From Sulfuritalea sp. (GTDB lineage Bacteria > Pseudomonadota > Gammaproteobacteria > Burkholderiales > Rhodocyclaceae), in contig JADJQA010000008.1 of the NCBI GenBank assembly GCA_016712985.1, positions 15,179 through 79,178 on the forward strand: 64,000 bases of DNA, written 5' to 3'. How positions within the stretch are numbered: position 1 is the stretch's first letter; each line of letters opens with the position of its first letter. The position numbers and the translations under genes were made by a program. Of the stretch, positions 20,715-60,651 are shown one piece after another. The notes below the pieces were generated by a model, which was given only the letters and a program-made list of their open reading frames with translations, did no database searches and had not been told where the DNA came from.

Positions 20715-20745
20715 GGCATCCGGCCCTGCTTTCTTCCGTTCCCAC

Positions 20746-21369
20746 TCATTTGGTAACTATCAAATTCAGCGAAATCCGTTGACCGGCAAAGACGAACTCG
20801 CTGGTATCGTTGAACAAGCCGAACGATTCGACATGCTCGACGCCGGCGAATCCCACGTCGCGCAGATAATCGACCAGGAAGTCGAAACAGTAGCCGATCT
20901 GGTGGAAATCGTGCGGCGTGGTCTGGCCGCCGAACATCATGCGCATGACATTAAACTTCGCCGCCGAGTCCAGGGCGGGGCTCAGGAAAAGCCAGGAAAG
21001 CATCTCCAGGTCAGGAACCGAGACATAGAGCTTTCCGCCGACACGCAGCATGCGGTGCAACTCATTGAAGACCGGCAGCACCTCCGCCTGTCCGACATGC
21101 TCAAGCACGTGCGACGCGTAGATATCACTGCAACAGCCGTCGCCAAACGCGGAAAGATCGCGAACGTCGCCGACGAAATCGACGCCCTCGCCAGCCTCGA
21201 CATTCAGGATCTTCCAGCCCTCCTTGATCTGCACACCACCTATATGCAGCCGAATGGGTTCCTCTTCCTCCTCGACGGATTGGCCACCGTCAGCGATGGA
21301 CTCGGCCTGGCGCATATCGCAATACCGATTCCACATACCTTTCAAGGCCGTTCCCATCGCCCGCGCCAT
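20746..21369 (-). CDS. class I SAM-dependent methyltransferase
   Basis: ATG 21369 lies 10 nt after the upstream stop. Methyltransferase 11-like block IYASHVLEHV...LHRMLRVGGKLYVSVP. Confidence 0.75.
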   Translation of the reverse strand: MARAMGTALKGMWNRYCDMRQAESIADGGQSVEEEEEPIRLHIGGVQIKEGWKILNVEAGEGVDFVGDVRDLSAFGDGCCSDIYASHVLEHVGQAEVLPVFNELHRMLRVGGKLYVSVPDLEMLSWLFLSPALDSAAKFNVMRMMFGGQTTPHDFHQIGYCFDFLVDYLRDVGFAGVEHVESFGLFNDTSEFVFAGQRISLNLIVTK

Positions 21370-21379
21370 ATCGAGGTGA

Positions 21380-23185: not shown

Positions 23186-24112
23186 TTACGAATCCTCGCG
23201 CGGCGCTTCGTCCGCAACCACATGCATGAATGCCGCTTCAAGTGACAACGATGGTTTGACCTCGCGCAACTGGTGATTCAGCATCCGAAGCTGATCGAGC
23301 ACTACCCATAGTTCGGAACGGGGCACCTCGGCCACCCAATTGCCCGCGCTTTCCTCGCGCGCCCGCGGAAATGCGGCGGAGCCGCTGCTGCGAACCATGA
23401 CCAGATCCTCGCTGCCGAGCAGTTCGGCAGGAGAGCGAACCGAACGCAGTTCGCCCTTGTGGATGAGGCCGAACCGATCCGCCAGTCTCTCGACATCGTG
23501 CAGTACGTGGGAGGTGAAGAACAAGGTACCGCCACCGCGCTTGTAGTCGGCCAGTATATCGACGACTTCGCGCCGACCGATCGGGTCCAGACCGCTCAGC
23601 GGTTCATCGAGCACCAGCAGGCGGGGATTGACGGCCATCGCGTTGGCCAGCGTCACGCGCTGGGTCATGCCTTTAGAGAAGGAGCGAACCGGTGCCGAAG
23701 CGACATCCGCGACACCCAACCGTTCCAGCCAGGCCATCGCCTGCCGGCGCGTTCCACCACCTTCCCGGCACTTGTGCAGGCGCAAACTCATCGAAACGAT
23801 CTCGAGCGGCGTAAGGTAATCGTACAGGCAGGGGTTCTCCGGGACATAACCAACCCGGATTCGGGCCTCGGGCAGCGCGGCATCGATGCCAAACAATTTG
23901 CAACTGCCGCGGGTTGCCCGTGCGAGGCCCATCAGGACTCTGATGGTGCTGCTCTTGCCCGCGCCGTTGGGCCCGACGAAGCCGAATGCCTCGCCCTCTG
24001 GAACTTCCATCGAAACGCCCGACACGGCCTTGACCGGTCGGCGCATCACCCCCTCGGCGTAGATTTTTTCCAGATTCTCGATTTGTATCGCCAGCATGGC
24101 TACTTTACCCAA
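23186..24112 (-). CDS. ABC transporter ATP-binding protein
   Basis: Walker A GPNGAGKSST, signature LSGLDP (degenerate LSGG), Walker B LLVLDEP. Confidence 0.9.
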   Translation of the reverse strand: MGKVAMLAIQIENLEKIYAEGVMRRPVKAVSGVSMEVPEGEAFGFVGPNGAGKSSTIRVLMGLARATRGSCKLFGIDAALPEARIRVGYVPENPCLYDYLTPLEIVSMSLRLHKCREGGGTRRQAMAWLERLGVADVASAPVRSFSKGMTQRVTLANAMAVNPRLLVLDEPLSGLDPIGRREVVDILADYKRGGGTLFFTSHVLHDVERLADRFGLIHKGELRSVRSPAELLGSEDLVMVRSSGSAAFPRAREESAGNWVAEVPRSELWVVLDQLRMLNHQLREVKPSLSLEAAFMHVVADEAPREDS

Positions 24113-24131
24113 AACGATTCTTGCGGGAACA

Positions 24132-24929
24132 TCAACGACGGGAGGCGAAAACAGGCTCGCCGTGTTCGTCCAGCGCGTAACCCCGATTGAAAGGGTCCGG
24201 GGGAATCCGCTCGATCAACCCGGCCGCCACGAGTTGATTCAGGTCGGTCAACGGCTGCCCATGGATTTCACGATAGCGCTGAGTCAGGGCTTGCAGCGCT
24301 GCCAGATCGCGCAGTCGCTGTGCCCTGTGGTTCAGATAGCGTTTGAACCTGCCGGGAGACGCATTGTCCGCCATGCGGCCGACGAGCTGTGCCGCATCGC
24401 CGGCACTGTAGCCGCGCTCTATCCAACGCGCCGCAAGGTTCTGCATGGTCCAGCTTTCCGCTTCGTCTCGCATGCGCGGCACGGCCTCGAGCAAGACCTG
24501 CGCCCCGCCAATGGGATCCTTCTCGAAGAAGTACTTGTTGAACCCCAGGTAGAACAGCGGCTGCCAGTCGTTGGGACGGGCATCTGCCGCCCGACGCAGG
24601 ATGTATTGCGCGGCCGGCATCAGTTCCGGTACCGACAGAATGGCCGCCGCGATGTAGTAGTTGTCTTCGTGAGCCGGGTTGAACCAGGAAACGTCGCGCT
24701 GGAGTTGCGCCTGTACCTGCAACTCGTCCGGCCCCATGCGATACGTCTCGGAAACCAGAATTCGGAACCCGCTAAGGTTGGCGGCGAGATACTTGTCGCC
24801 TGCCGCCATGGCGATCTGGAATACCAGCGGCAGACGCACCACGAGTTCGCGGCTGCGCTCATGCAACTGCTCCCGCGAGCCATGAATGTTCGAAAGTCCG
24901 AACATCATCGCGGCGAACACCAGCAGCAT
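24132..24929 (-). CDS. membrane-anchored hypothetical protein (transporter accessory?)
   Basis: One N-terminal hydrophobic anchor (MLLVFAAMMFGL) followed by a soluble helical domain. Lies between the permease and the ATPase. Start uncertain: ATG 24929 or TTG 24971. Confidence 0.45.
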   Translation of the reverse strand: MLLVFAAMMFGLSNIHGSREQLHERSRELVVRLPLVFQIAMAAGDKYLAANLSGFRILVSETYRMGPDELQVQAQLQRDVSWFNPAHEDNYYIAAAILSVPELMPAAQYILRRAADARPNDWQPLFYLGFNKYFFEKDPIGGAQVLLEAVPRMRDEAESWTMQNLAARWIERGYSAGDAAQLVGRMADNASPGRFKRYLNHRAQRLRDLAALQALTQRYREIHGQPLTDLNQLVAAGLIERIPPDPFNRGYALDEHGEPVFASRR

Positions 24930-24967
24930 GCCGCCGCGATAGCGGACGGCCAGCGCGTGAAAATCCC

Positions 24968-25783
24968 TCAAGAAAACTCCCGCTGCTGCAAGGCACGCAC
25001 ACCAAGGCCGACGGCGATTGCCGCGTACGACAGGGCCATGATGACTGCCCAGGTCATGTGCTCTGCGGATGGAGTCGCACCGTACAGCGACCATTGGCGC
25101 CAATCGAGACGGGAAAGATCGGGAATCAGCCAGCGCACGGTATCGACCCACGGGCCCAACTTCCCGACCAACGCCGTATCACCGTCCGCCCCGCTCGACA
25201 GGTAGTCAACCGACGCACCCAGAGCTTTGCCGCTGATCGCAAACGCCGCGCCGAGCGCCAGAGGCAGTACCGGAACGGTGGAAATCATGGCAATTGCCGA
25301 GGCCACAGCCGAAACGACCGCGACATCGAGCACAATGCCGGCAAGCGCGACCAGGAATGGCAAACCCAGGTCAACAGGAAACTCCTGCTCATAGCGCGGA
25401 CTGGCCAGCAACACCGCAAGCAGGAGACAAAAGCCGAGAATGGCTATGGAAATGCCGACAAGGACCACGATCGAAAGGTAGCGCCCGACAAAGAACTCGG
25501 AACGCGATGTCGGCAAGGCCAGGGGATGCAGGATGATCTTGCGGTCGATCTCGCGAGTGAAGAGTTCTTGCACCCAAAACAGCGCCAGGAGGACCATGGT
25601 GAAACGCACGACCGAAAACCCGATGTCCAGCGCGATCGTTTGCGGCTGGCGCGGCGAAAAGCTTCCGGCGAGGTAGGCAAACGCGATCAAGACCAGGCCG
25701 AGAACAAAGGTCACCTGGATGCTGCGGCCACGCAGGCCGGAAAGCATGCCCGACCAAGTGAATTCAAGGGCTCGAAAATGCAT
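24968..25783 (-). CDS. ABC-2 type transporter permease
   Basis: 271 aa with about 6 hydrophobic segments. Same operon as the ABC ATPase. Confidence 0.65.
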   Translation of the reverse strand: MHFRALEFTWSGMLSGLRGRSIQVTFVLGLVLIAFAYLAGSFSPRQPQTIALDIGFSVVRFTMVLLALFWVQELFTREIDRKIILHPLALPTSRSEFFVGRYLSIVVLVGISIAILGFCLLLAVLLASPRYEQEFPVDLGLPFLVALAGIVLDVAVVSAVASAIAMISTVPVLPLALGAAFAISGKALGASVDYLSSGADGDTALVGKLGPWVDTVRWLIPDLSRLDWRQWSLYGATPSAEHMTWAVIMALSYAAIAVGLGVRALQQREFS

Positions 25784-25791
25784 TCACATTG

Positions 25792-25831
25792 CCAAATAAA
25801 AGTGGCGGGCAAACCCGAGGGTTTGCCCGCC
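25792..25831 (-). terminator. rho-independent terminator after the pilin pair
   Basis: Perfect 13-bp stem GGCGGGCAAACCC / GGGTTTGCCCGCC (25804-25831), followed on the minus strand by ACTTTTATTTGG. Confidence 0.75.
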
Positions 25832-25860
25832 AATCTGAACCACTTGAAACTACCCGGTGA

Positions 25861-26241
25861 TCAGCCCGAAGTCGGGTTGTTGGTGCTGGTGAGCGCGCTT
25901 GTGGCGGCAGCGGAATTGCAGGATGTACCGGTACAGGTGGCTTCGCTGGTCACCGAACCGCCGGCGGTGGAACCGCGGAAGGAGCGGCTGCCGGCCGAGG
26001 AAACCGCGCCGACGCGGAAATAGGACTTTTGCTGGTCATAGACCATGTGCACGTTTGCAGAGCACTTTGCCGAAAATGAGTTGACCACCATCTCATTCGT
26101 AGCACTGGTGTCGACAGTGATCGTACCGTTGCCGGCAGACGTCGGCGCAGCGCAGACGACACCGGATGTAGCCGCGTTTGCATCAACCATCGCCGATAGG
26201 GCAACAGTCGTGAGAACGGACGCAAGAATAATTTTCTTCAT
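25861..26241 (-). CDS. secreted Cys-containing Ser/Thr-rich protein, candidate split-pilin globular partner (PilA-C-like)
   Basis: 126 aa. Sec signal peptide MKKIILASVLTTVALSAMVDANA|AT. Four Cys in the mature part and an S/T/G-rich C-terminus. The start is 13 nt after the short pilin stop, with RBS GGGAG. Confidence 0.6.
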   Translation of the reverse strand: MKKIILASVLTTVALSAMVDANAATSGVVCAAPTSAGNGTITVDTSATNEMVVNSFSAKCSANVHMVYDQQKSYFRVGAVSSAGSRSFRGSTAGGSVTSEATCTGTSCNSAAATSALTSTNNPTSG

Positions 26242-26254: not shown

Positions 26255-26437
26255 TCAGTTGGTTGAATTGGCAGTCGCCTGGGTCAACAGGTTCTTGCCG
26301 TCGGATTGAGCAGCCTTGTCGTTGCCCTTTTTGGTGTACTCACTGAACTGAGGAATGGCGATGGCGGCGAGGATACCGATAATCGCAACAACGATCATTA
26401 ATTCGATCAGCGTAAAACCTTTTTGCAGCTTGGTCAT
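26255..26437 (-). CDS. truncated type IVa pilin (60-aa prepilin, 53-aa mature)
   Basis: MTKLQKG|[24 protein letters not shown] is a canonical class III leader with Gly-1/Phe+1/Glu+5. The ORF stops after only about 30 residues beyond the alpha-1 helix. RBS AGGAGA lies 8 nt upstream. Confidence 0.85.
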
Positions 26438-26486: not shown

Positions 26487-26502
26487 AGCACGAAGCGTGC
26501 CG
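26487..26502 (-). promoter_or_regulatory. candidate sigma-54 (-24/-12) promoter for the pilin pair
   Basis: The minus strand reads cGGCACGcttcGTGCTt, against the consensus TGGCACG-N4-TTGCW. GG-N10-GC spacing is satisfied. The site lies about 50-65 nt upstream of ATG 26437. Confidence 0.45.
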
Positions 26503-26648: not shown

Positions 26649-28274
26649 TCAATTCCGAAGCAGCGCCGCGACATCCACTTCATCGATCTGCCCCGCGTCA
26701 AGAAACTGCTCGGCGTAACGCCGATAGACGCCCTGTTTGACGAACACATCGAACAGGTCGGGATCGATATGGCCATTCTTCTTGAAATTCGTCATGATGC
26801 CCATGGCCTGTGACAGCTTCATGCCGGGCTTGTAGGGGCGATCGCGCGCTGTCAGCGCCTCGAAGATGTCGGCGATGCCCATCATGCGCGCCTGCCATGA
26901 CATCTGTTCGCGGGTCAGGCCCTTGGGGTAGCCCTTGCCGTCCATGCGCTCGTGATGCCCGCCGGCGTATTCGGGCACCTTGGTCAGGTGCCGCGGCCAC
27001 GGCAGTTGCTCCAGCATCTTGATCGTGGCGACGATGTGATGATTGATGATTTCGCGTTCCTTTTGCGTCAGGGTGCCGGCGCGGATGCCCAGGTTGAGCA
27101 TCTCGTCGGCATCGAGGAACTCGGCCTCGACACCATCGACATTGCGCCATTTGCGCCCGCTGCCGATATCGCGGACGCGCTGCATGTCATCCTCCTTCAT
27201 GGCCTCGCCGCCGACATTGGCCTTGCGCAGAAACTGCCGATCTTCATCCAGCAAACGGAGTTCCTCCTGACAGTCCTTCCAGATCTGCTGGTCCGCCGCG
27301 GGATCGGCGTTTTCGCGCAGAGCGAGTTGCTTGCGCAGCGCCTTGATCTCCGCATCGCGTTTGAGCACTTCGAAACGCGTTTCGACCAGATGGATACGGT
27401 CGAACAGCGTCTGCAGCTTGGTAGCCTTGTCGACCACATGAACCGGGGTGGTGACCTTGCCGCAATCGTGCAGCAAGCCGGCGATCTTGAGTTCGTAGCG
27501 ATCGCGTTCATCCATTCTGAACGAGGCCAGCGGTCCTTCCGTGGTCGCGTCGACCGCCTCCGCCAGCATCATGGTCAAGGCCGGCACGCGCTGGCAATGG
27601 CCGCCCGTGTAGGGCGATTTCTCGTCAATTGCCATGTTGATCAGATTGATGAAGGCCTCGAACAGTTCTTCCAGCTGGCTGATCAGCAGGCGGTTGGTCA
27701 GGGCGATGGCGGCCTGCGAGGCCAGCGACTCGGCGAGGCTCTGGTCGGCCGAGGAAAACGGGGTCACCTGACGCGTCAGGGGATCCTGGGCGTTGATGAG
27801 TTGCAGCACGCCGATGATTTCGCCCTCATGGTTCTTCATCGGCACCGTGAGGAAAGACTGCGAGCGATAGCCGGTGCGCGCATCGAAGCTGCGGGTACCG
27901 GAAAAGTCGAAGCCGGCCTCGGTATAGGCGTCGGCGATATTCACCGTCTTGTCATGGATCGCGGCATGGGCGGCGACCATCGAGTCATTGGACTCGCCCT
28001 TGTCGTTGGTCAGCGGCAGGTTCGGGAAGTTGATGGCAACACCGGTGGTGCCGCCCATCGCGATGTTCAGCGAATCGGTGCGCAGGATCTCGAAGCGCAA
28101 GGCGCGCCGGTCCTCGGTCATCCGATACAGCGTTCCGCCATCGGCATGGGTAATGGTCTTGGCCGCGATCAGGATGGTCTCCAGCAGCCGATTGGTGTCA
28201 CGTTCCTTGGAAAGCGCGGCGCCGATGGCATTGAGTTGCTCAAGGCGGCGAAACAAGTCGGTGGAATTGTCCAT
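26649..28274 (-). CDS. GAF domain / HD-GYP phosphodiesterase
   Basis: 541 aa. N-terminal GAF-like region, HD motif (LLHDCGK) and GYP motif (GGHHERMDGKGYPKG). Confidence 0.85.
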   Translation of the reverse strand: MDNSTDLFRRLEQLNAIGAALSKERDTNRLLETILIAAKTITHADGGTLYRMTEDRRALRFEILRTDSLNIAMGGTTGVAINFPNLPLTNDKGESNDSMVAAHAAIHDKTVNIADAYTEAGFDFSGTRSFDARTGYRSQSFLTVPMKNHEGEIIGVLQLINAQDPLTRQVTPFSSADQSLAESLASQAAIALTNRLLISQLEELFEAFINLINMAIDEKSPYTGGHCQRVPALTMMLAEAVDATTEGPLASFRMDERDRYELKIAGLLHDCGKVTTPVHVVDKATKLQTLFDRIHLVETRFEVLKRDAEIKALRKQLALRENADPAADQQIWKDCQEELRLLDEDRQFLRKANVGGEAMKEDDMQRVRDIGSGRKWRNVDGVEAEFLDADEMLNLGIRAGTLTQKEREIINHHIVATIKMLEQLPWPRHLTKVPEYAGGHHERMDGKGYPKGLTREQMSWQARMMGIADIFEALTARDRPYKPGMKLSQAMGIMTNFKKNGHIDPDLFDVFVKQGVYRRYAEQFLDAGQIDEVDVAALLRN

Positions 28275-28283: not shown

Positions 28284-30659
28284 CTACTTGATGCAGACCG
28301 CCCGCACCTGCTTCAGATCGGTGACGCCCTGCAGGGCCTTTTCGAGGCCATCCATCTTCAGGGTCAGCATGCCGTCCTCGAGCGCCTGGGAGAACAACTG
28401 CGCCACCCGGGCGTGCTCCTGGATCAGCTTCTTCAGCGGCTCGGTGCCGATCATCAACTCGTGCAAGCCGACGCGACCCTTGTAGCCGCTGCCGCCACAG
28501 GTGTCGCAACCCTTGGCGCGGGTGAACACCAGATGGCCATCCTTGCCGTAATCATTGATCAGGCGCTCGAGCGTCGCGGCGTAAGCCGCATCCTTGTCCT
28601 TCTGGAAAGGCGCGGTATTGTCCAGTTCGCTGCAATACTCTTTCATGAACAGCCTGACTTCATCGGCGTCGGGCGTATAGCTCTCCTTGCACTTGCACAA
28701 CCGCTTGGCCAGCCGCTGGGCCAGGATGCCAAGCAGGGCATCCGAGAAGTTGAAGGGGTCCATGCCCATGTCGAGAAGACGAATGATTGATTCAGGCGCG
28801 CTGTTGGTGTGCAGGGTGGCGAACACCAGGTGGCCGGTGAGCGACGCCTCGATACCGATGCCGGTGGTTTCGGCATCGCGCATTTCGCCCACCATGATGA
28901 TGTCCGGATCAGCGCGCAGGAAGGCTTTCATCACCATCGGAAAGTCCATCACCTTCTTGTTGACCTGAACCTGGCGCAAGCCCTTCTGGGTAATTTCGAC
29001 GGGATCTTCGGCGGTCCATATCTTGGTATCCACGGTATTCAAGTAACCCAGCACCGAATGCAGCGTGGTGGTCTTGCCCGAGCCTGTCGGGCCGCAGACG
29101 AAGAACAGTCCGTAGGGCTTGGAGATGGTGGCCTTGAGCTTGGCCAGATTGGTCGGCAGCACGCCGAGCTTGTCGAGCGGGATGGGCTCGCCACCGGCCA
29201 GGATGCGCATCACGACATCCTCGACCCCGCCGGTGGAGGGAATCGTCGCCACCCGCAGCTCAATGTCCAGCGGGCCGTATTTCTTGAACTTGATCTTGCC
29301 GTCCTGGGGCTTGCGCCGCTCGGCAATGTCCAGGTCGCACATGATCTTGAGGCGTGCCACCATGGCGTTGCGGTAGCTCGCCGGCACTTCGATGTACTTC
29401 GCCAGCGAACCATCGCGACGGAAGCGGATCAACACCTTGTCCTTGCCCAGGCCCGGCTCGATGTGAATATCCGAAGCCCCCTGCTGATAGGCATCGATGA
29501 TGATCTTGTTGACCAGCTTGACCAGTTCGTTGTCCGACGCCGCCGAGATATCGTCACCGACACCGCCTTCCCCCTCCATGTCACCCTCATCGAGGGTTGA
29601 CAGCAGATCGCCGACGGAACTGTCGTCCATGAAACCGGGCACGCCCGAAGCTCCAAACAGGTAGTCGAGCGTCTGCACGAACTCATGGTTGGTGGTAACC
29701 CGATAGACAACCTTCGCCCGCGGAAACACATTGTTGACGACACGCGAGCCCTTGACCTGCTCGGGGTCCATGCAGACTACCGTCAAGCCTTCAGCCCCCT
29801 CGTCGACCGGAGCCCATCTGGCCTGTTCCAGAAAATCCCGCTTGAGGTTTTTCAGCAGGTCGGCCGGTTTCACGCGGTCGGACCTGAACGGCTCGTAAGG
29901 CACATTGAAGAACTTCCCCAAGGCGGCGCCCAGGGCCTCGTGCTTGACTTGAAACTCGTTGACCAGAACTTGTTCTATGTCGAGATTCTTGCGTCGCGCG
30001 GTGCGCGTCGCCAGCTCCAGTTCCTGTGCCGAAATGACGGCGTCGGAAACCAGAGAATCGTACTTGGACTTGGCCTTGACGGCATGTACCGGCTTGCTGC
30101 GCTGGTTAAAGGCAATCGCCAGCGTTTCGCACAGGCCCTTGATACCCTCCTCTGCAACGGTTGCAAAGGGAGCGCCCGCCTTGTTGTTGATGATCTGCAC
30201 GACGCCCATCAACTCGCCGCTTTGCGCATCGACGATCGGGCCCACCAGGACCTGCTTGGTGCGATATCCAGTCCGCTTGTCAACTTCCTGCAGGAAGCGC
30301 AGCGAAGGATTGATCTCCTTGAGTTCCGCTTCGTCATAGACGTCGCGGATATTCACTATCTTCTTGGCCAGCGCGACATGGCCGGCGATACTCTGGTCGG
30401 CGATCGGCAGGCGCAGATCCTTGAACGAATTCAGGCCTGTCTTGACTTTGGAGACAATGGAAGCCTTGTCGTCGCCGACGGAATAGATTGTCAGGCGGTC
30501 GGCATTGAACAGGCTGCAGATCTCGGCGGACAGCTCCAGCATGATTTCATCGATGTTGGACGTCGCATGAATCTTGTTGGTGACAAGCTGAAGGTTCTTG
30601 AAGAAAGTCAGACGGCTGTCCACGTCGGACGCGGAGGTGGCAACAGGCACGGCGTTCAT
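28284..30659 (-). CDS. GspE/PilB-family secretion ATPase with N-terminal GAF domain
   Basis: 791 aa. GAF-like N-terminus, a T2SSE_N-like linker, Walker A GPTGSGKTTT and Walker B DPDIIMVGEMRD. Tetracysteine motif CKCK...CDTCGGSGYKGR. Confidence 0.9.
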   Translation of the reverse strand: MNAVPVATSASDVDSRLTFFKNLQLVTNKIHATSNIDEIMLELSAEICSLFNADRLTIYSVGDDKASIVSKVKTGLNSFKDLRLPIADQSIAGHVALAKKIVNIRDVYDEAELKEINPSLRFLQEVDKRTGYRTKQVLVGPIVDAQSGELMGVVQIINNKAGAPFATVAEEGIKGLCETLAIAFNQRSKPVHAVKAKSKYDSLVSDAVISAQELELATRTARRKNLDIEQVLVNEFQVKHEALGAALGKFFNVPYEPFRSDRVKPADLLKNLKRDFLEQARWAPVDEGAEGLTVVCMDPEQVKGSRVVNNVFPRAKVVYRVTTNHEFVQTLDYLFGASGVPGFMDDSSVGDLLSTLDEGDMEGEGGVGDDISAASDNELVKLVNKIIIDAYQQGASDIHIEPGLGKDKVLIRFRRDGSLAKYIEVPASYRNAMVARLKIMCDLDIAERRKPQDGKIKFKKYGPLDIELRVATIPSTGGVEDVVMRILAGGEPIPLDKLGVLPTNLAKLKATISKPYGLFFVCGPTGSGKTTTLHSVLGYLNTVDTKIWTAEDPVEITQKGLRQVQVNKKVMDFPMVMKAFLRADPDIIMVGEMRDAETTGIGIEASLTGHLVFATLHTNSAPESIIRLLDMGMDPFNFSDALLGILAQRLAKRLCKCKESYTPDADEVRLFMKEYCSELDNTAPFQKDKDAAYAATLERLINDYGKDGHLVFTRAKGCDTCGGSGYKGRVGLHELMIGTEPLKKLIQEHARVAQLFSQALEDGMLTLKMDGLEKALQGVTDLKQVRAVCIK

Positions 30660-31732
30660 TCGACTGCCTCCTTGGCGCCAGCATGCGCCCTCATGCCGCC
30701 GTCAAGCAGTGCCGCGTGAAGTCCGCGCTGCGACAGCAAGAACGCGGCGGCGGAACTGCGACGTCCCGTCTGGCAATAGACAATGTAGTTCCTTGCCGGA
30801 TCCAGCGCAGCCGAGGCCTGACGAATGTCGTTGAGCGGAATGTTGATGGCACCCGGATAGCCGTCACTCTGATACTCGGCGGGGAAGCGCACATCGATCC
30901 AGATCGCCCCGGCGGCAACCCGCCGTTCGCCCTCGACGCCGGTGACTCTCTGCAGCAGCGGCGCGAGCAGCAACTGGTTGAAATCCTGCTTCGACAAGCA
31001 CAGCAGCATGCCATCCGTATTCATCGTCACGCTTGCATTGCGCACCGTATCGGCGACCAGCGCCTCTTCGCCAAAAGCATCGCCTTCCTTGAGTTCCGCC
31101 AACTGCACCGGAGATCCGGCAACCAGTCGGGAAACCTTGCAGCGCCCGCGTTCGATCAGATAGTAGTAATCGCCCGGATCACCCTGCTTGACTATTATCT
31201 GACCGCGTTTCACGGGAACGCGCCTGAACTTCGCCAGCAGCGACTGAATATTGGCCGGGGGCAGGGAAGCAAAGCTGCCCACGGTAAGGTTCTCCAGGGC
31301 GAGCATGCCGGACATCATGCTCCAGTCTGTTTGATCGGCGCTACGATGCTCGCCCTCGCTGGAGGTGACGAGCTGGTTCCAGGTGACGACGATGTCCAGG
31401 CTGTCCTCCTCGAGGCTGAGCAGTTCGACGTCCGTAATGGCCTTGCCTGCTGACGGGACTTTCCCCCCGCGCGCCAGGGGAGCGGTAGCAAGATCATGGC
31501 CTCCCACCAGCACACGCGCAGCGCCGTCCGGCATTTTCACCCAGAGCTGCCCGCGCAGCAGGTATACCACTTGAGTGCTCCAGTTGTTGGTGGCACGAAA
31601 CGGGTCGGTGGCGCGTGCGAAGGCATGCGTGCGACAGAGCGGCAGCAACAGCCGCAAGCCTTCGCTGCCCAGTGATTTCAGGGGTTGCAGGCGGGCCAGC
31701 AGGTCAACGTCCACCGTGTCAGCCACGATCAA
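30656..31732 (-). CDS. tandem cyclic-nucleotide-binding domains fused to a rhodanese domain
   Basis: 358 aa with two CAP-type cNMP folds (second: GDPGDYYYLIERGRCKV...GDAFGEEAL). C-terminal rhodanese with active-site loop CQTGRRS. ATGA overlaps at both ends. Confidence 0.8.
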   Translation of the reverse strand: MIVADTVDVDLLARLQPLKSLGSEGLRLLLPLCRTHAFARATDPFRATNNWSTQVVYLLRGQLWVKMPDGAARVLVGGHDLATAPLARGGKVPSAGKAITDVELLSLEEDSLDIVVTWNQLVTSSEGEHRSADQTDWSMMSGMLALENLTVGSFASLPPANIQSLLAKFRRVPVKRGQIIVKQGDPGDYYYLIERGRCKVSRLVAGSPVQLAELKEGDAFGEEALVADTVRNASVTMNTDGMLLCLSKQDFNQLLLAPLLQRVTGVEGERRVAAGAIWIDVRFPAEYQSDGYPGAINIPLNDIRQASAALDPARNYIVYCQTGRRSSAAAFLLSQRGLHAALLDGGMRAHAGAKEAVE

Positions 31733-32496
31733 ATCTCGAACAACTGGTTGTTTTGCAGCATCCGGGGGCAGAATTCACCGATGCGGTCTTCGATCTCTTG
31801 CATGGTCAATTCGACCTGTCCGGGTTTCAGATGGGTGATGAAAACCTCCGCATCGCGCTGCAGACTTGCCAGTTCTTCCAGCAGCATACTCGGGCACAAA
31901 TGCAGGGACGCCACGGCCAGAGCCTTTTCCCGGTCCGAGAACGCACACTCGATGATCAGGTAGCGCAGATTGAGAATGCTGTTGACGTGCGTCCAGAGAC
32001 CGGGGCATGGCCCGGTATCACCGGTAAACACCAGACTGGCATCTCCGGAATCAAGCTGGTATCCGACCGCGGGGACGGTGTGATTCGCCGGCAGCGGAAT
32101 TATCTTGCGGCCATCAAGGATCACGGACTGCCCAACGTGTATGGTTTCAAAGCGCAGAAAGGGTTTCTCCGCCTTCGGTATCTCGCTGAAATCGGGCCAT
32201 ATTGCCCAGTTGAAAATATGCGAACGGATAATTTCAAGCGTCGCATCGGTCGCATGCACTATCAGCGGGCGATTGCGCATGTCCCCCACCGTATCGATCA
32301 TGAACGGCAGGCAGGCCAGATGGTCCAGATGCGAGTGGGTAATGAAGACATGATCAATCTGGGCCAGCTCGGCGATCGCCAGGTCGCCGACTCCGGTTCC
32401 GGCATCGATCAGAATGTCGTTGTCGACCAGAAGCGAGGTGGTACGCAGATGGCGCCCGCCAATTCCGCCGCTACAACCGAGAATGCGTACCTTCAT
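31729..32496 (-). CDS. class II 3',5'-cyclic-nucleotide phosphodiesterase (MBL fold)
   Basis: 255 aa. MKVRILGCSGG... followed by the THSHLDH signature typical of class II cAMP phosphodiesterases. Confidence 0.8.
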   Translation of the reverse strand: MKVRILGCSGGIGGRHLRTTSLLVDNDILIDAGTGVGDLAIAELAQIDHVFITHSHLDHLACLPFMIDTVGDMRNRPLIVHATDATLEIIRSHIFNWAIWPDFSEIPKAEKPFLRFETIHVGQSVILDGRKIIPLPANHTVPAVGYQLDSGDASLVFTGDTGPCPGLWTHVNSILNLRYLIIECAFSDREKALAVASLHLCPSMLLEELASLQRDAEVFITHLKPGQVELTMQEIEDRIGEFCPRMLQNNQLFEI

Positions 32497-32623: not shown

Positions 32624-34839
32624 CTAGAATATGGTCACGCCATCCCAGTTTTCTCCTGGGGATTCCTTGCGCAGGTGTTCAACGCGTTTGACGTACAGAT
32701 CGTAAAGATAGCGCGGCTTGATGCGTTGCAGATTCATCAGCGTCACTTCCGCCTTGTCCCAGTCCTGGGCGCGGTAGCTGCGCAAAGCCTGATTCCAGAG
32801 CTTGATCTCTTCCAGGTCCTCACGAGAGACCTGGCCCTCCTCGCCGACCGGCTCGTAAATGGCCACGGGATCTTCCTTGCCCTTGACCCGCACGCGATCC
32901 AGTTCGCGGAAGACAAATTCCTTCTTCAGCAGTTCGCGCGTGCTCTCGCCAGCGATCATGCCCACCCCGTACTGCTTGGTGATACCTTCCAGGCGCGATC
33001 CAAGGTTGACCGCGTCGCCCATGACGGTGTAAGACTGCCGCACCGGCGATCCCATGTCGCCAACGGTCATCGTACCGGTATTCACCCCAACACCGATCTT
33101 CAGTTCCGGCCAGCCGCGCGCAAGAAGACCCTTGTTCAGCTCGTCGAGTGCGACATGCATTTCCAGCCCTGTACGAACCGCGTTCTTCGCATGCCCGGAT
33201 CATCGACCGGCGCACCCCAGAAGGCCATGATTGCGTCGCCGATGTATTTGTCGAGCGTTCCGCGATGTTTGCGCACCACCACGGTCATCGCGCCGAGGTA
33301 TTCGTTCATCAAGCTTGCCAACTGGTCCGGCTCCAGCCCTTCGGAAATCGTCGTGAATCCGCGCACATCGGAAAACAGCACGGTCAGTTCTGCCTTGCGC
33401 CCGGCCATGCTGTAGTTCTCCGGATCGCGGCTCATCTCCTCGACCAGTTCCGGCGGCACATACTGGCCGAACAGGCCGGTCAACTGACGCTTGGTCCGCG
33501 ACTCGACAAAGTATCCCCACGACATGTTCGTGGCATAGAGCAGCACGATCGCGATAATGCCATTCGCCAGCGGCAACACGACATTCGACACATGCCAAAA
33601 ACTGAAATTCACGATGAGCGCCAGCAGCAGGAGCAGGACCCCGACCAAGGTGGCCCGCAATGGTGACAACATCGGCAGCAGGAAAGCCATCACTGCCCCC
33701 GAGATCAGCACCAGCAACACATCGGCACCGAGAATATAGGGTGCCTTGTGCTTGATCGCTCCGTCCAGCATGCCCGCGATCAGGTTGGCGTGGATCTCGA
33801 CCCCCGGATACGCCGCGCCCACCGGGGTGGCACGCAAGTCCATGAGCCCCGGCGCCGTGGTGCCAACCACAATCACGCGCCCCGCGAGTTGGTCCTTGGG
33901 AACCCGATCGTTGAGCACGTCGGTTATCGAGATGTAGGGGAAGCTTCCCTGAAAGCCCCGATATGGAATCAATGTCGCCGCATTTTCGTCCACCGGAATG
34001 CGCATCACACCGCCCCCAGCGGCTTGCAGATCCAGCCACTCCATGGCCGCATAAGATGCCGGCGAACTTCCGGGATAGCCAGGGGTAATCGGCGGACCGC
34101 CGAGCAGATTGCGCACCATCGCCAGTGCCAGAGACTCGTAGTACTGACCTTTGTACTCGACCAGCAAGGGAACCCTCCGCGAGGTGCCATCCTGATCCAC
34201 CAGTGGATTGAAATGCCCGGCGCCAGCTGCGGCCTTCTGGAACTCGGGCAGGTTGCCGCCGTAGCTGACCCACTGTGTAAAGGCGATACGGCGGCCACTG
34301 AAGGTGCCGGCCGGGAATACGGAGTCCGGAGCAGCGCCGGAACTGGCGCCGCCCTCCTTGCTTGAGAAGTAGTAGCCGAGAATCACTGGCCGGTTCTTCA
34401 GCGCTGCGGCGAAGCGCGCATCGTTATCCAACAGCGGACGCAAGTCCCGCAGCGCCGTTTGGAAGCCTGGAATGTCCTTGAGTTCATTCTTCGCCAGGGA
34501 CTCCAGTGACTTGAGGCCCGAACTTTCGTCGGGCTCGGCGAAGACCACGTCGAAACCGACCAGCCTGACTCCGTACTGATCAAACAGCTTGTTCATCAAG
34601 GTCGCCAGTTTGTCCCGACCCCACGGCCAACGTCCCTGTTCGGCGAGCGACTTCTCGTCGATGTCGAGAATCACCACTCGCTGATCAATACTCCGTGGCA
34701 TGGTCAAGCGCACTTTCGCGTCGTAAATCAGCGCGTCCATGTGATTGATGAACGGAATCTGGTAAAACCGGGCCGAATGGCCGAGCAGCACCAGAATAAT
34801 CAGGAGTCCCAGCCCGTAGCGGGGAAGATACTGCTTCAA
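32624..34839 (-). pseudogene. CHASE2-sensor class III adenylate cyclase, one frameshift
   Basis: CHASE2 block (VVILDIDEKSLAEQGRWPWGRD) and TM segments. The cyclase domain is split at about 33185: ...KYIGDAIMAFWGAPVDDPG then HAKNAVRTGLEMHVA... in the next frame, with one G apparently missing in CCGGGC. Probable TTG start at 34839 (MKQYLPRYGLGLL). Confidence 0.85.
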
Positions 34840-34870: not shown

Positions 34871-35620
34871 TTAGTTCTTGAGGAAAAATTCCATCTTGGT
34901 TCCCGCCAGTTCGACGACATCATGGTCGGCAAGTGGATGCGCCTGGGCGTCGAGCGCCTTGCCGTTGACCACCGGGAAGTTGGCGCCCTCGACGTGCGTA
35001 ATGAAGTAGCCATGGGGGCGACGCGCGATGACCGCAACCTGCACACCCGGCCTGCCCAGCGTGGTCAGGCTCTTGGTTAACTCCATTTCCTTGCCGGCGT
35101 TGGCGCCCGAAAGTATCTGGATCGCGCCCAATGGCAGCACAGGCGCTGCCGCGGGGCGAGCCAATGGCGGCTGCGCAGCCATTCCCGGCGAGGTCGCGGA
35201 GTGAGCCGGAACGGCGGGCGCCGGAGCAGCCGCCGCGGCAGGAGCCATAGGAGCAGCAGGAGCCGGCTGATGCGCCGCTCCGGGACGCAGGATCATGGTC
35301 TTTTCGAAATCCGCGCTTGAGGTCTGCTGTGGAACCTCGCCGACATACTTCAGGCGGTACTTGCCAAGCTCGATGACGTCGCCATTCTGCAGGAAGTGCT
35401 TCTTGACCGACTGGCCATTGATGAAAGTGCCGTTGGTGCTGCCCAAATCTTCCAGAAAGGAATCATTGAGAATGGTGATCACCACGGCGTGCTCGCCGGA
35501 AATAGCCAGATTGTCGATCTGGATATCGTTGTGCGGCTTGCGACCAATCGTGGTGCGCTCCTTGGTCAAGGGGATTTCCTTGAGCATCGTGGTTTCCATG
35601 CTGAGTATGAGCTTAGCCAT
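34871..35620 (-). CDS. double FHA-domain protein
   Basis: 249 aa. N-terminal FHA (TIGRKPHNDIQIDNLAISGEHAVV...GSTNGTFING), an Ala/Pro-rich linker, then a second FHA-like domain (TLGRPGVQVAVIARRPHGYFITHVEG). Confidence 0.85.
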   Translation of the reverse strand: MAKLILSMETTMLKEIPLTKERTTIGRKPHNDIQIDNLAISGEHAVVITILNDSFLEDLGSTNGTFINGQSVKKHFLQNGDVIELGKYRLKYVGEVPQQTSSADFEKTMILRPGAAHQPAPAAPMAPAAAAAPAPAVPAHSATSPGMAAQPPLARPAAAPVLPLGAIQILSGANAGKEMELTKSLTTLGRPGVQVAVIARRPHGYFITHVEGANFPVVNGKALDAQAHPLADHDVVELAGTKMEFFLKN

Positions 35621-35662: not shown

Positions 35663-36484
35663 TTACTTGAACCAGGCCAGGAAGCGAGCCCACCAGCCGC
35701 GCGCCGCCGGATATTCGCCCTTCACCCTGACCAGGATTACCGAAACATTGTCACGGCCACCGTTGTCGTTGGCCATCTGAATCAACTGCGTCGCGCACAA
35801 GTCGAGATTGGCTGACAAGGCGCCAACAGTCATGGCAAGTTCCTCGTCGTCCACCATGTCGTTGAGGCCGTCGGAACAAAACAGGTAGACGTCGCCCGGC
35901 AAGACGTCATGGTCGTGTATCTCGGCCTGCACCTCGGGATCGATGCCGACGGCTCGCGTGACCAGATTCTTGTTCTGCGAAAAGCGTGCCTGCTCCGAAG
36001 TGATCAGACCGCTGTCGATCTGCTCCTGCAGCAGCGAATGATCGCGCGTTATCTGGGAGAACTCGTCACCACGCCAACGGTACAGCCGCGAGTCACCAAT
36101 GTGGCCGACAGTCACCTTGTTGTCGTGAAACACAGCGACCACCAGCGTTGTTCCCATCCCGGCATATTGCGGCTGGCTCAGTGCCGCCTGATAGATGGTG
36201 GCATTGACCCGAGCCATTTCCTTCTCCAGGGAGACTTGCGCCCAGGACTTGCCGGAAGCGTCCATGCTGCTGGGCTCGCGTGCAATGAAGGCTTTCTCAA
36301 GTTCGGTGCCGAGCAGCGCCGTTGCCATGCCGCTGGCGACCTCGCCAGCGTTGTAGCCGCCCATGCCATCGGCCAGCACGGCGAACCCGCGCTGCGGATT
36401 GGCCATGACCGCGTCCTCATTGTTGGTGCGCACCGAGCCGGGATCGCTGCGAGTGACAATTTCGAGAACGGCATTCATGTCCAT
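35663..36484 (-). CDS. PP2C-family Ser/Thr phosphatase
   Basis: 273 aa. RTNNEDA, LADGMGG and CSDGL...DN motifs. Confidence 0.9.
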   Translation of the reverse strand: MDMNAVLEIVTRSDPGSVRTNNEDAVMANPQRGFAVLADGMGGYNAGEVASGMATALLGTELEKAFIAREPSSMDASGKSWAQVSLEKEMARVNATIYQAALSQPQYAGMGTTLVVAVFHDNKVTVGHIGDSRLYRWRGDEFSQITRDHSLLQEQIDSGLITSEQARFSQNKNLVTRAVGIDPEVQAEIHDHDVLPGDVYLFCSDGLNDMVDDEELAMTVGALSANLDLCATQLIQMANDNGGRDNVSVILVRVKGEYPAARGWWARFLAWFK

Positions 36485-36494: not shown

Positions 36495-39071
36495 TCAAAG
36501 GCTGATATCGACGCCGGAATCGGCGGCGGCAGGGGCGGTTCCGCCGCCAGTCATGCAGGTGCGAACGTCTTGCGCGAACTCCGCGCCTGTCTGGTAGCGC
36601 GCGTCCGGATCCTTGGTCATCGCCTTGTCGATGACCGCCACGACGCAGTCAGGCAGATCGGGGTTGAAGCCGCGTATGTCGGGATGCGGCTCGTTGGCGA
36701 TCTTGAACATCAGTTGCGCCATCGAATCGCCCTCGAAGGGCAGCTTGCCGCACGACATCTGGTACAGCATCACGCCCAGGGAGAACAGGTCGGAACGACC
36801 ATCGATCTTCTTGCCGGCGAGTTGCTCCGGCGACATGTAGCTCGGCGTGCCGAGCACCATGCCGGTCTTGGTCTTCGACGAATCGGTAATGCGCGCAATG
36901 CCGAAGTCGGTCACCTTTACCTGGTCGGCATCGGGCTCGTACATGATGTTCGCCGGCTTGATGTCACGATGCACGACATTGTTTTCGTGCGCATAGGACA
37001 GCGCATCGGCCACCCGCGCGACAATGCTCAGGACGCGTGGCAACGGCATCAGATTGCCCTGCTTGGTGTAGGGCGCCAGATCCTTGCCCTTGAGGAACTC
37101 CATCGCGATGTAGGCGAGATCGTGCTCCTCGCCGGCATCGAACATCGTGACGATATTGGCGTGGTTGAGGCGCCCCGCGGTTTCGGCCTCGCGGAAGAAA
37201 CGTTCCTTGACCTCGACCAGTTCGTCCGCCTCGAACTCCTGCGCGAGCGCCATGGTCTTGATCGCCACCACGCGATTGATCTTCGGATCGCGTCCAAGGT
37301 AGACCACGCCCATCGCCCCCTTGCCCAGCTCCTTCTCGATTTCGTAACGACCGAGCATCGGCTTTTCGACATTCCCCGCGGTATCGATCAGGCTGGCATT
37401 GCTGCGCCCCCCTCCACCGCCACCAAGAATCACCGTTTCCGAAAGCTGCTTGGCGCGGTTCAGGCGAGTTTCAATGTCGCGGAATTTCGGGTTGAAATCG
37501 AATATGTAGCGGAATGCCGCCTCCGCCTTGTTGAACTGGCGCTTGCGTTCGAAGTCTAGCGCCAGGTTGTACAGGTTCTCCATCAAGGCGTCATCCATCG
37601 GGCACTTGCGGAACTTGTCGAAGGCCATGTCAAGCTGTCCCTGGCCCTGGAAGGCCAACCCCAGCATGCGGTTCGACTCGGCCGAATCGGCATCGGACTT
37701 TTCCTTGCCGCGCTCGGAAACCAGGAAGCGTTTGGTGGTCAGCAGGAGATGGCCGACCAGCAGCAGAGTCGCCGGCACCATCAACTGCAGCCACATCAAC
37801 TGCGTCGTCATCAGCGTGAAATGAACGACGATCAATGCCACCAGCAGTCCCGCAGTGATGCCCGCCGCCATGCCGGCCTTGATCTTCGGCAACAACCCGA
37901 TCAGGTAGGCAGCGATCAGCAGGAACACCAGCTTTTCGACCCAGAAGCCCCAGGTCGGGGCGACGAAGAAATGCTCGGAAAGCAGGCTGGATACCGCATG
38001 CGCCTGCATCAGCACGGCCGGCATGGTCGGGCTGATCGGAGTGACAAACACACTGCCCACCGAAGATGACGTCGGCCCGATCAGGACGATCTTGTCGCGG
38101 TACTTGTCGTAGGGAATCTTGCCGCTCTTGACGTCGAAGAACGAATCCACCGGGAAGGCCGGGTGGCCATCACGGTCCTTGTAGTAGAAGGTCAGCATAC
38201 GCGTGTCGAGGTCGGTACCTATCTTGAGCTTGCCCAGCTTGACCGAGTCGCCGGCTGTTACCTGTATGTCCGCCACGGTCAGGTTGTCGCTCCTGGCCGC
38301 CACCAGCAGCGACAGCGAGGGATAGGCCTGATCGAAGTAGGACAGCACCAGTGGTTCGGTGCGAATCGCACCATCCACATCGGGAGTCACATTGAGATGG
38401 CCGATTGAGGCGGCCACCAGACCGAGCGGCTCGATCACGCCGGCATCGACCCCGAGGGTCGGATAGGGCGGCGCATCCGCGGCGCCAAGCAGCTTGACTG
38501 CGTTCTTCTTCACGTAATCGGGCAGTTCCTTGTCCGGCCGTCCGCGCGGCTCACCGAGCACGAAAAGCATGGGCAGCGCCACGTTCCCCGCCTTGGCGAA
38601 CGCATCGGCCAGGCGGCGGTCGGTGTTCAGCTTCTGGTCCGCCTCGAGCAGGATCGACTCGATCTGCGGGCAGGAGGATGCAGCGGTGGAAGCCTCGCCT
38701 GCCGCAGGCCTTGTGGCAACGCCGCAGGTCTGCATCAGCTTGCTGATATACACCAAGCCTTGATCGCGCTGCGGCTCGGAGTAGAACACGGTGGTGGCGA
38801 TCACCTTGGCTTTTGCCGCGGCAAGCTTGTCCACCATGTCGGCCATAACCTCGCGCGACCAGGGCCAGCGGCCAATGTTGTCGAGACTCGGCTTGTCGAT
38901 CGCAATCACGGCGACCTTGTCCGACGGAGTGCGCGAAGCAGCCGCCACACCCATGTCGTAAGCCTTGCGCTCCAGCCCCTGCAGTAGCTCGCCATTACCC
39001 AGAATCAGTACGACGACGCTGACGACAACACCGAAGAACCAGTCACTTTTCCAGAAGTCTGCCTTCTTCAT
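36495..39071 (-). CDS. CHASE2-sensor Ser/Thr protein kinase (kinase domain C-terminal)
   Basis: 858 aa. N-terminal CHASE2 (VAVIAIDKPSLDNIGRWPWSRE), TM block and a TPR-like linker. Hanks kinase motifs: GKGAMGVVY, VAIK, HRDIKPANIM, DFGIA, SPEQ. Confidence 0.9.
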   Translation of the reverse strand: MKKADFWKSDWFFGVVVSVVVLILGNGELLQGLERKAYDMGVAAASRTPSDKVAVIAIDKPSLDNIGRWPWSREVMADMVDKLAAAKAKVIATTVFYSEPQRDQGLVYISKLMQTCGVATRPAAGEASTAASSCPQIESILLEADQKLNTDRRLADAFAKAGNVALPMLFVLGEPRGRPDKELPDYVKKNAVKLLGAADAPPYPTLGVDAGVIEPLGLVAASIGHLNVTPDVDGAIRTEPLVLSYFDQAYPSLSLLVAARSDNLTVADIQVTAGDSVKLGKLKIGTDLDTRMLTFYYKDRDGHPAFPVDSFFDVKSGKIPYDKYRDKIVLIGPTSSSVGSVFVTPISPTMPAVLMQAHAVSSLLSEHFFVAPTWGFWVEKLVFLLIAAYLIGLLPKIKAGMAAGITAGLLVALIVVHFTLMTTQLMWLQLMVPATLLLVGHLLLTTKRFLVSERGKEKSDADSAESNRMLGLAFQGQGQLDMAFDKFRKCPMDDALMENLYNLALDFERKRQFNKAEAAFRYIFDFNPKFRDIETRLNRAKQLSETVILGGGGGGRSNASLIDTAGNVEKPMLGRYEIEKELGKGAMGVVYLGRDPKINRVVAIKTMALAQEFEADELVEVKERFFREAETAGRLNHANIVTMFDAGEEHDLAYIAMEFLKGKDLAPYTKQGNLMPLPRVLSIVARVADALSYAHENNVVHRDIKPANIMYEPDADQVKVTDFGIARITDSSKTKTGMVLGTPSYMSPEQLAGKKIDGRSDLFSLGVMLYQMSCGKLPFEGDSMAQLMFKIANEPHPDIRGFNPDLPDCVVAVIDKAMTKDPDARYQTGAEFAQDVRTCMTGGGTAPAAADSGVDISL

Positions 39072-60624: not shown

Positions 60625-60651
60625 GTCATTCCGGCGGATGCCGGAATCCAG
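60625..60651. repeat. REP-like palindromic unit
   Basis: gtcattccggcGGATgccggaatccag, 26 nt after the cheY stop. Confidence 0.85.

Follow-up and report, generated by a model that had tools for sequence, protein, structure and literature searches.

What does an assembly ATPase sense when a GAF domain stands at its N-terminus, and what does it assemble in response? The question is raised by a gene in the window, by which we mean the whole stretch of 64,000 nucleotides (nt) analysed here, taken from Sulfuritalea sp. (assembly GCA_016712985.1, contig JADJQA010000008.1, positions 15,179 to 79,178). An earlier, sequence-only reading had proposed that positions 28284-30659 encode a GspE/PilB-family ATPase whose N-terminal module is a GAF domain rather than a site for cyclic di-GMP (c-di-GMP), leaving the strand unstated. 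An intact open reading frame (ORF) lies there on the minus strand, the three peptides quoted in that reading occupy residues 56-72, 129-158 and 202-224 of its product, and the fusion of GAF domain and ATPase is confirmed, far beyond chance. We are somewhat inclined to the view that this protein, referred to below as GAF-N1-ATPase, is a PilB-like assembly ATPase that is gated by a GAF domain of the cyclic-nucleotide type, acts within a cyclic AMP (cAMP) circuit and has lost the c-di-GMP site of its relatives.

The catalytic half is canonical, as had been noticed before. The ORF runs without interruption from an ATG through 791 codons, its G+C content at third codon positions (0.80) is typical of the genes in the window (about 62% G+C), and its product is 100% identical to a protein already in the databases (P0001). 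The Pfam model T2SSE (PF00437) matches residues 374-785 with 359 bits (cut-off 24.9), and this region contains the Walker A motif (GPTGSGKTTT, residues 523-532), the Asp box (EDPVE, 551-555), the Walker B motif (DPDIIMVGEMRD, 584-595) and the His box (THLVFATLHTN, 609-619), none of which varies in an alignment of 63 betaproteobacterial homologues (65-94% identity) from which all counts of residue conservation in this text are taken. The tetracysteine zinc motif is also present (C655, C657, C718 and C721, invariant in this alignment), its first pair being spaced CxC in the clade of Sulfuritalea, Rugosibacter and Sulfurisoma and CxxC in other family members. By sequence, the best solved relative of the core in the Protein Data Bank (PDB) is PilB of Myxococcus xanthus (3jc8, E 8.7e-100), followed by Thermus PilF, Geobacter PilB and then Vibrio cholerae EpsE.

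The assignment of the first 190 or so residues to a GAF domain holds up in Pfam, in PDB sequence matches, in an AlphaFold2 model and in Foldseek. Pfam GAF (PF01590) matches residues 36-183 (E 6.8e-8, 33.6 bits; cut-off 22.4). When residues 1-250 were compared with all PDB chains, both GAF domains of Anabaena CyaB2 (1ykd) led with E 1.2e-25, with further matches to GAF-B of PDE10A, the GAF domain of PmGH, GAF-B of PDE2A, PDE5 and PDE6; among the 21 matches, the weakest alone (the PtsP GAF domain, 3trc) is not of the cyclic nucleoside monophosphate (cNMP) type. Because the ATPase half of the full-length AlphaFold2 model was poor, from a shallow alignment (mean predicted local distance difference test score, pLDDT, 66; used for secondary structure only), residues 1-345 were modelled separately, using the 63 homologues (59-90% identity over the modelled region). 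This second model (mean pLDDT 87.3, about 90 or more over most of residues 10-188) shows the helix and strand order of a GAF domain, followed by a linker of low confidence (189-197), a bundle of four helices and finally an alpha/beta subdomain. Foldseek ranked 4mcw (PmGH) first among PDB entries and placed 1ykd, 3ibj, 2zmf and 3mf0 with it at the top (E 2e-12 to 1e-9); the full range of E extended to 4e-7 and included the cAMP-bound GAF domain of Lcd1 (5w10), whose match by sequence is weaker (E 7.8e-5). In the predicted structure, the N-terminus is thus a GAF fold of the cyclic-nucleotide subtype.

The contacts of PDE2A GAF-B with cyclic GMP (cGMP), which we take to be I458/A459, V484, D485, T488 and T492, with Asp439 favouring cGMP, can be followed into this domain. 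I458/A459 align to I91/A92 within ADQSIAGHVA, the numbering having been checked against a printed alignment, and V484, D485, T488 and T492 align to V126, D127, T130 and T134 within EVDKRTGYRT. The position of Asp439 is taken by T74, and that of PDE2A Glu512 by Q155; CyaB2 and PDE10A, which bind cAMP, and PmGH likewise have Gln there. A92, V126, D127, T130, T134 and Q155 are invariant, as are R55, T57, Y59, K73, R133, Q136, N158 and F165, and I91 and T74 vary slightly, with conservative changes at I91. We infer that the GAF domain of the ATPase would bind cAMP.

The next segment has kept the four-helix fold of an N1 domain and lost its nucleotide site. Pfam MshEN (PF05157; 30.3 bits, cut-off 23.1) is confined to residues 252-338, which form the C-terminal subdomain, and the four helices are seen at residues 201-251 in the AlphaFold2 model. 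The profile search that had been proposed returned GAF, MshEN and T2SSE, each above its cut-off. In MshEN domains, the c-di-GMP motif consists of two tandem 24-residue copies of RLGxx(L/V/I)(L/V/I)xxG(L/V/I)(L/V/I)xxxxLxxxLxxQ (PMC5013675). In alignment with M. xanthus PilB, the RLG of motif I is replaced by S198-K199-Y200, and in motif II the R-I-G reads D227-I228-E229, with F236 in place of the turn Gly and F250 in place of the closing Gln. The relaxed motif given in PMC5013675 is also unmatched by the segment in either register, and the segment has invariant residues of its own (K199, Y200, D201, L203, E229 and L232). NCBIfam NF053729, a model of the 53-residue c-di-GMP motif, did not match GAF-N1-ATPase; it is able to detect the motif in this window, because it scores 33 bits (cut-off 38) on a CheA protein encoded there. 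Because residues 190-345 retrieved only a weak PilB match from the PDB (15.6 bits) and no V. cholerae MshE chain, the motifs were compared through the PilB alignment, together with the published consensus. In this alignment, both c-di-GMP motifs are destroyed, and the remark of the sequence-only reading that the T2SSE_N-like segment lacks the RLGxxLVxxG signature applies to both copies.

Where might a cyclic nucleotide come from? The ATPase gene is part of a minus-strand operon (Table 1) with the order CHASE2 Ser/Thr kinase, PP2C phosphatase, FHA-domain protein, CHASE2 cyclase, phosphodiesterase of the metallo-beta-lactamase (MBL) fold, CAP/rhodanese protein, GAF-N1-ATPase and GAF-HD-GYP protein. 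Several junctions abut or overlap; the ATG of the ATPase gene overlaps the stop codon of the preceding gene (ATGA), and the HD-GYP gene starts 9 nt past the ATPase stop codon. The cyclase, phosphodiesterase and CAP-domain genes, from whose presence a cNMP sensor had first been proposed, are confirmed by Pfam, and the MBL-fold hydrolase also weakly matches the NCBIfam model cyc_nuc_deg_phdiest. The GAF-HD-GYP protein matches PmGH (4mcw) with E 1e-29, its HD and HHE..DG.GYP motifs are intact, and its GAF domain is 32% identical to that of the ATPase over the core. The operon is flanked by sucCD on one side and by ABC-2 transporter and glycosyltransferase genes on the other.

This arrangement is no one-off: the operon is conserved in 80 or more species of Betaproteobacteria. 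The protein databases hold thousands of relatives of the ATPase, of which the closest 120 are about 790 residues long, share 82-100% identity with it and are composed of the same three Pfam domains; they belong to Sulfuritalea, other Rhodocyclales, Rugosibacter and Sulfurisoma. With one genome scanned per species, 594 candidates emerged, and the best 80 of them, each of full length and with 66-92% identity, come without exception from Betaproteobacteria, including Azospira, Dechloromonas, Propionivibrio, Methyloversatilis, Noviherbaspirillum, Herminiimonas, Gallionella and Nitrotoga. Sulfuritalea and Denitratisoma also carry the operon. Around these best 80 genes, neighbours identified by tblastn included the GAF-HD-GYP gene (74/80 loci), the phosphodiesterase (69/80), the cyclase (62-65 of 80), PP2C (54/80), CAP/rhodanese (42/80) and the CHASE2 kinase (39/80), and the FHA gene (cluster 5) was found in 42 loci; many of the missing neighbours are cases of contig ends. 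In a subgroup of Noviherbaspirillum and Paucimonas, the phosphodiesterase, HD-GYP and cyclase genes lie divergently upstream. In three loci of this type (L035, L037 and L049; 12.3-21.6 kb), a conserved opposite-strand trio encoding proteins of about 290-340, 1200-2260 and 520-555 residues follows the ATPase gene in place of the HD-GYP and pilin genes.

Because the residues of the GAF domain were judged unreliable for telling cAMP from cGMP, the specificity residues of the cyclase were used for this distinction. In the intact orthologue at locus L001, and identically in the window, these are Lys in GTLDKYIGD and Thr in SYTVMGDAVN. The same Lys/Thr pair is found in Pseudomonas aeruginosa CyaB and Spirulina CyaC, whereas the guanylyl cyclase Cya2 has Glu and Gly. 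Since the cyclase carries the Lys/Thr pair, its product is predicted to be cAMP, which is most likely the nucleotide of the operon.

What, then, does the motor drive? About 210 nt past the stop codon of the HD-GYP gene lies a gene for a short type IV prepilin, supported by TIGR02532 (41.9 bits, cut-off 16.3) and PF07963 (41 bits). We examined the 59 related loci in which the HD-GYP gene runs in the same direction as the ATPase gene and is followed by 600 nt of sequence or more: a prepilin gene follows on the same strand in 42, within 600 nt in 21 and within 5 kb in 40, and no prepilin motif was found upstream of the ATPase gene in 1.45 Mb of loci. The pilins are 57-61 residues long in Rhodocyclales-type loci, and about 135-170 residues long, matching PF00114, in most others, chiefly of the Burkholderiales type. 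Since this downstream prepilin gene is seen in 42 of the 59 informative loci as well as in the window, the most likely output of the ATPase is a type IV pilus, and not type II secretion.

In the window, the prepilin gene is followed after 13 nt by a gene for a 126-residue secreted protein, which matched no Pfam or NCBIfam model and has homologues at L001, L002 and L006. By description only, the two genes resemble pilAB of Azoarcus sp. BH72, in which a short prepilin and a co-transcribed second gene are essential for type IV pili (PMC3262810), and they loosely resemble the split PilA-N/PilA-C of Geobacter. A sigma-54-like site (GGCACG-N4-TGC, 26487-26502) upstream of the pilin gene is merely suggestive of a promoter, as matches at the same stringency are no commoner than chance. 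Beyond the pilin unit lies an ABC-2 transporter trio (23186-25783, minus strand), consisting of an ATPase, a 339-residue protein of no known family and a membrane protein, which is kept in precisely those ten related loci with short pilins of 57-61 residues (L001-L003, L005-L007, L010, L011, L053 and L068) and is absent from loci with full-length pilins. About 18 loci have, downstream of the pilin region, genes for TPR plus GT41 (O-GlcNAc-transferase-like) glycosyltransferases such as those at 18774-23185 (minus strand) in the window, and these may act in pilin glycosylation. A second recurring cluster of TPR-containing ORFs is present in 13 related loci.

Table 1. Features of the operon and of the pilin unit that follows it, in window positions
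Feature	Position	Strand	Evidence
CHASE2 Ser/Thr protein kinase gene	36495..39071	minus	Pfam CHASE2 185 bits, Pkinase 187 bits
PP2C Ser/Thr phosphatase gene	35663..36484	minus	Pfam PP2C_2/PP2C
FHA-domain protein gene	34871..35620	minus	Pfam FHA 79 bits
CHASE2 class III cyclase gene (predicted adenylyl cyclase), frameshifted	32624..34839	minus	CHASE2 and split Guanylate_cyc (profile 5-68, 99-175)
MBL-fold hydrolase gene, similar to class II cNMP phosphodiesterases	31729..32496	minus	Lactamase_B_2 58 bits, PDEase_II 40 bits
CAP-type cNMP-binding and rhodanese protein gene	30656..31732	minus	Pfam cNMP_binding 78 bits, Rhodanese 51 bits
GAF-N1-ATPase gene, GspE/PilB family, 791 residues	28284..30659	minus	Intact ORF, Pfam GAF, MshEN and T2SSE
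GAF domain, predicted cyclic-nucleotide subtype, residues 10-188	30096..30632	minus	PDB sequence matches, AlphaFold2 model, Foldseek
N1/MshEN-like domain, residues 199-338, four-helix bundle and alpha/beta subdomain	29646..30065	minus	Pfam, model, PilB alignment
ATPase core (N2 and C-terminal domain), residues 374-785	28305..29540	minus	T2SSE match, PDB matches, motifs
GAF-HD-GYP gene, PmGH family, putative cNMP-regulated c-di-GMP phosphodiesterase	26649..28274	minus	Pfam GAF and HD_5
Short type IV prepilin gene, 60 residues (53 mature)	26255..26437	minus	TIGR02532, PF07963
Secreted protein gene, 126 residues, no known family, 13 nt after pilin gene	25861..26241	minus	Signal-peptide-like N-terminus
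Strong terminator-like hairpin, 13 pairs then T-run, closing the pilin unit	25803..25832	minus	

We propose that these parts work together as follows. The CHASE2 adenylyl cyclase would make cAMP on an extracytoplasmic cue, probably under the control of the CHASE2 kinase, PP2C and FHA proteins, and the MBL-fold phosphodiesterase would remove it, resetting the signal. Three receptors encoded in the operon would read cAMP in parallel, namely the CAP/rhodanese protein, the GAF domain of the HD-GYP protein and that of the ATPase. The ATPase would be a hexamer with the GAF sensor fused at its N-terminus and an N1 domain that has lost the c-di-GMP site; cAMP bound to its GAF domain would reposition the flexibly tethered GAF-N1 module on the motor, and this would switch either the activity of the hexamer or its docking to the pilus platform, thereby controlling whether the pilin encoded alongside is polymerised. 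At the same time, the GAF-HD-GYP enzyme would lower c-di-GMP. The analysis shows the domains, the lost c-di-GMP motif, the conserved operon, the neighbouring pilin gene and the specificity residues of the cyclase; cAMP binding by the GAF domain, the sign of its effect on the ATPase and the type IV pilus as the filament are the parts of this scheme that we infer. Loss of the c-di-GMP pocket together with gain of a cAMP-type GAF domain would amount to an exchange of inputs on the same motor.

Carried to its full extent, this proposal would describe an extension motor gated directly by cAMP, in which the ancestral c-di-GMP pocket of N1 has been replaced by an N-terminal cAMP-binding GAF domain. 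The operon would then be self-contained, comprising two extracytoplasmic CHASE2 sensors (on the kinase and the cyclase), the phosphodiesterase, the motor, a cAMP-driven c-di-GMP phosphodiesterase and a pilin gene, and it would convert an outside cue into pilus extension, bypassing transcription and simultaneously lowering c-di-GMP. We advance this fuller version tentatively, and with some doubt.

Several observations weigh against a cAMP-gated pilus motor, and the alternatives draw on them. The first group concerns the ligand. The NKFDE motif marks cNMP-binding GAF domains. In GAF-N1-ATPase it reads N159-K160...F165...A169-E170, with Ala at the Asp position, and Ala or another non-acidic residue is found there in 63/63 betaproteobacterial homologues. 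In the comparison with cNMP-binding GAF domains that the sequence-only reading had called for, fold and contact residues agree, and the NKFDE motif agrees in all residues but this Asp. The motif makes no ligand contact, but cGMP binding is lost when its Asp is changed to Ala in PDE2 GAF-B or PDE11A4 (PMC11977230). It is conceivable, although we think it unlikely, that the GAF domain of the ATPase binds no cyclic mononucleotide and is a module for dimerisation or scaffolding, or a sensor of some other small molecule, in which case the CAP-domain protein and the HD-GYP enzyme would be the sole links to the cyclase operon. PmGH, the top fold match, has a GAF domain without any identified ligand, and a Nitrospirota clade of the family retains the GAF domain without an adjoining cyclase gene. 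This alternative is harder to reconcile with sequence and fold neighbours of the cNMP type (all but the weakest sequence match), with an invariant ribose-phosphate contact motif (V/D...T-G-Y-R-T), with the complete NK..F...DE motif of more distant family members, or with the co-inheritance of the ATPase gene with cyclase and phosphodiesterase genes in more than 60 species. The AlphaFold2 models predict a flexible linker between GAF and N1, so that no mechanical coupling is evident from the model. In addition, the loss of one nucleotide at about 33194/33195 (CCGG-GCAT in the window, CCGGAGCAT in L001) breaks the cyclase gene of the window into two ORFs. The window gene has a TTG start at 34839, and the orthologues inspected are single ORFs of 740-770 residues; the frameshift reflects either genuine decay to a pseudogene or a mistake in the assembly.

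How far does the fused architecture extend beyond the operon? A search of 1.84 billion representative proteins with residues 1-370 gave 261 clusters at E 1e-30 or better with contiguous GAF and N1, including proteins of 770-810 residues with the same architecture and proteins of 940-1020 residues with tandem GAF domains. A Nitrospira/Nitrospirota clade is about 34% identical in the N-terminal half and 95-98% identical internally, with more than 100 database clusters, and a metagenome scan with distant family members recovered this clade only (loci L081-L160). Two features of its loci count against the cAMP and pilus reading: the ATPase gene follows uppS-cdsA-dxr-rseP-proS, a housekeeping context, and no cyclase or pilin gene was found near it. 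One or two opposite-strand genes for PilZ-domain proteins come after it in 41 loci. Taken as a whole, the Nitrospirota context neither supports nor refutes that reading. Because this clade has the fusion without cyclase or pilin genes, the fused architecture appears to be old and widespread, and the cAMP/pilin operon betaproteobacterial only. Five distant members (P0128, P0184, P0232, P0242 and P0254) have degenerate Walker A motifs (e.g., APPASGTTSA, GHAGAGKTVT, GPKCCGKTTT and GPPKSGRTTT) and, judged from these, may be catalytically dead paralogues.

The second group of adverse observations concerns the filament. The top-scoring NCBIfam model is PilB (TIGR02538), with 452 bits under an equivalog cut-off of 675.65; GspE (TIGR02533) comes close behind with 402 bits, under its cut-off of 630.25, and TfpB scores 365 bits, far under 850. 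Since all these scores are below their cut-offs, yet the best models and structures are those of PilB, we regard the protein, on sequence grounds, as a divergent superfamily member leaning towards PilB. No pilC/gspF, pilD, pilMNOPQ or gsp genes were found in the window or in the 80 betaproteobacterial loci, and a search for pilC, pilD, gspF and other machinery genes in the window and 160 related loci likewise found none. A canonical PilB may be present elsewhere in the carrier genomes. Might the ATPase serve a different apparatus encoded elsewhere, either one resembling type II secretion or another kind of type IV filament, or be mainly a signalling ATPase? M. xanthus PilB, for which a signalling role in exopolysaccharide control has reportedly been proposed (PMC5544727), would offer a parallel; the window has polysaccharide and glycosyltransferase genes close by, platform, peptidase and secretin genes are in none of the loci, and the gene is an orphan in Nitrospirota. 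We nevertheless hold this alternative to be improbable, given the same-strand type IVa prepilin gene downstream in most loci, an N1 region that aligns to the N-terminus of PilB and not to the N1E domain of GspE, and PilB and PilF as the best solved relatives.

Finally, the cAMP versus cGMP preference of a GAF domain is not readable from its sequence alone (PMC4411481), the best PDB match of the cyclase overall is the guanylyl cyclase Cya2 (2w01), with CyaB (3r5g) a close relative, and the cGMP-binding GAF domains of PDE2A, PDE5 and PDE6 are also close, ADQSIAGHVA being nearly identical to the PDE2A sequence; use of cGMP or another cyclic nucleotide in place of cAMP is nonetheless quite improbable, with Lys and Thr in the cyclase where Cya2 has Glu and Gly, a Cya2 entry with the E-to-K exchange (6fht) described in its annotation as an adenylate cyclase fusion, and Thr74 and Gln155, as in cAMP binders, at the positions of PDE2A Asp439 and Glu512.

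A cAMP-gated, PilB-like motor would differ in instructive ways from systems already described. In MshE and PilB proteins with a c-di-GMP-binding MshEN domain (V. cholerae MshE, M. xanthus PilB and Clostridium perfringens PilB2), the N-terminal module of the motor itself reads a second messenger, and the ATPase core and the position of N1 are shared with GAF-N1-ATPase; unlike them, the latter has an extra GAF domain, destroyed 24-residue motifs and a predicted ligand that is cAMP, not c-di-GMP. The closest relatives of its GAF domain, in Anabaena CyaB1/CyaB2, PDE2A, PDE5, PDE6 and PDE10A, have the same ligand-contact motif. In contrast to those enzymes, GAF-N1-ATPase has a single GAF domain (tandem versions occur in other clades), a secretion-type ATPase as output, a flexible linker in place of a continuous signalling helix, and Ala for the NKFDE Asp. 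PmGH, whose family is represented by the gene adjoining the ATPase downstream, has an HD-GYP output and no ATPase. Precedents for cAMP acting through such domains are Tlr0485, a Thermosynechococcus GAF-HD-GYP protein that requires cAMP for c-di-GMP hydrolysis, and Leptospira Lcd1, a cAMP-activated GAF-GGDEF diguanylate cyclase in which a single bacterial cAMP-binding GAF domain controls a fused output; the output domains of both differ from the ATPase, and the sequence similarity of Lcd1 is weaker. In P. aeruginosa (Pil-Chp, CyaB, Vfr and CpdA), pilus production is likewise tied to cAMP, which comes from a class IIIb Lys/Thr cyclase. There cAMP acts on transcription via Vfr, whereas in GAF-N1-ATPase the cAMP-type sensor is fused to the motor, which implies post-translational control. 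The pilus system of Acinetobacter baylyi has an additional PilB paralogue, TfpB (PMC8213720), and so provides a precedent for a second extension motor, although TfpB has no GAF domain and GAF-N1-ATPase scores far below the TfpB cut-off.

Other signalling genes lie further off in the window. At 4 kb beyond sucCD lies the gene of another class III nucleotide cyclase (43253-44533, minus strand; Guanylate_cyc, 162 bits), whose N-terminal region is probably membrane-embedded. The CheA-type kinase (62352-63998, plus strand), which runs off the end of the window, carries its MshE-type c-di-GMP motif at residues 269-293 and is accompanied by a CheY-like receiver (60234-60599), a methyl-accepting chemotaxis protein (60638-61993) and a STAS protein (62008-62349). 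In the region 53859-59083 are two multi-PAS HisKA_3 histidine kinases (53859-55727, minus strand; 56163-58433, plus strand) and a NarL/MctR-type response regulator (58226-59083).

Although the domain combination is visible in database annotations as "GspE/PulE family protein", no study of a GAF-PilB/GspE architecture was found in the open-access literature, and in a 2024 review of how PilB is regulated, GAF domains go unmentioned and cAMP is discussed only as a transcriptional signal. To our knowledge, second messengers control pilus motors by two routes: c-di-GMP acts through N1/MshEN or through PilZ/FimX adaptors, and cAMP only through Vfr/CRP-dependent transcription. If our proposal is correct, the motor with its fused cAMP-type sensor would add a third, direct route to these, and would be a natural case in which the nucleotide input of the same machine has been exchanged. 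The carriers of the operon include groups that are important in wastewater, groundwater and soil, and the fused architecture is also very highly conserved in Nitrospira. The proposal offers a directly testable hypothesis and a candidate handle on the attachment and biofilm behaviour of these organisms.

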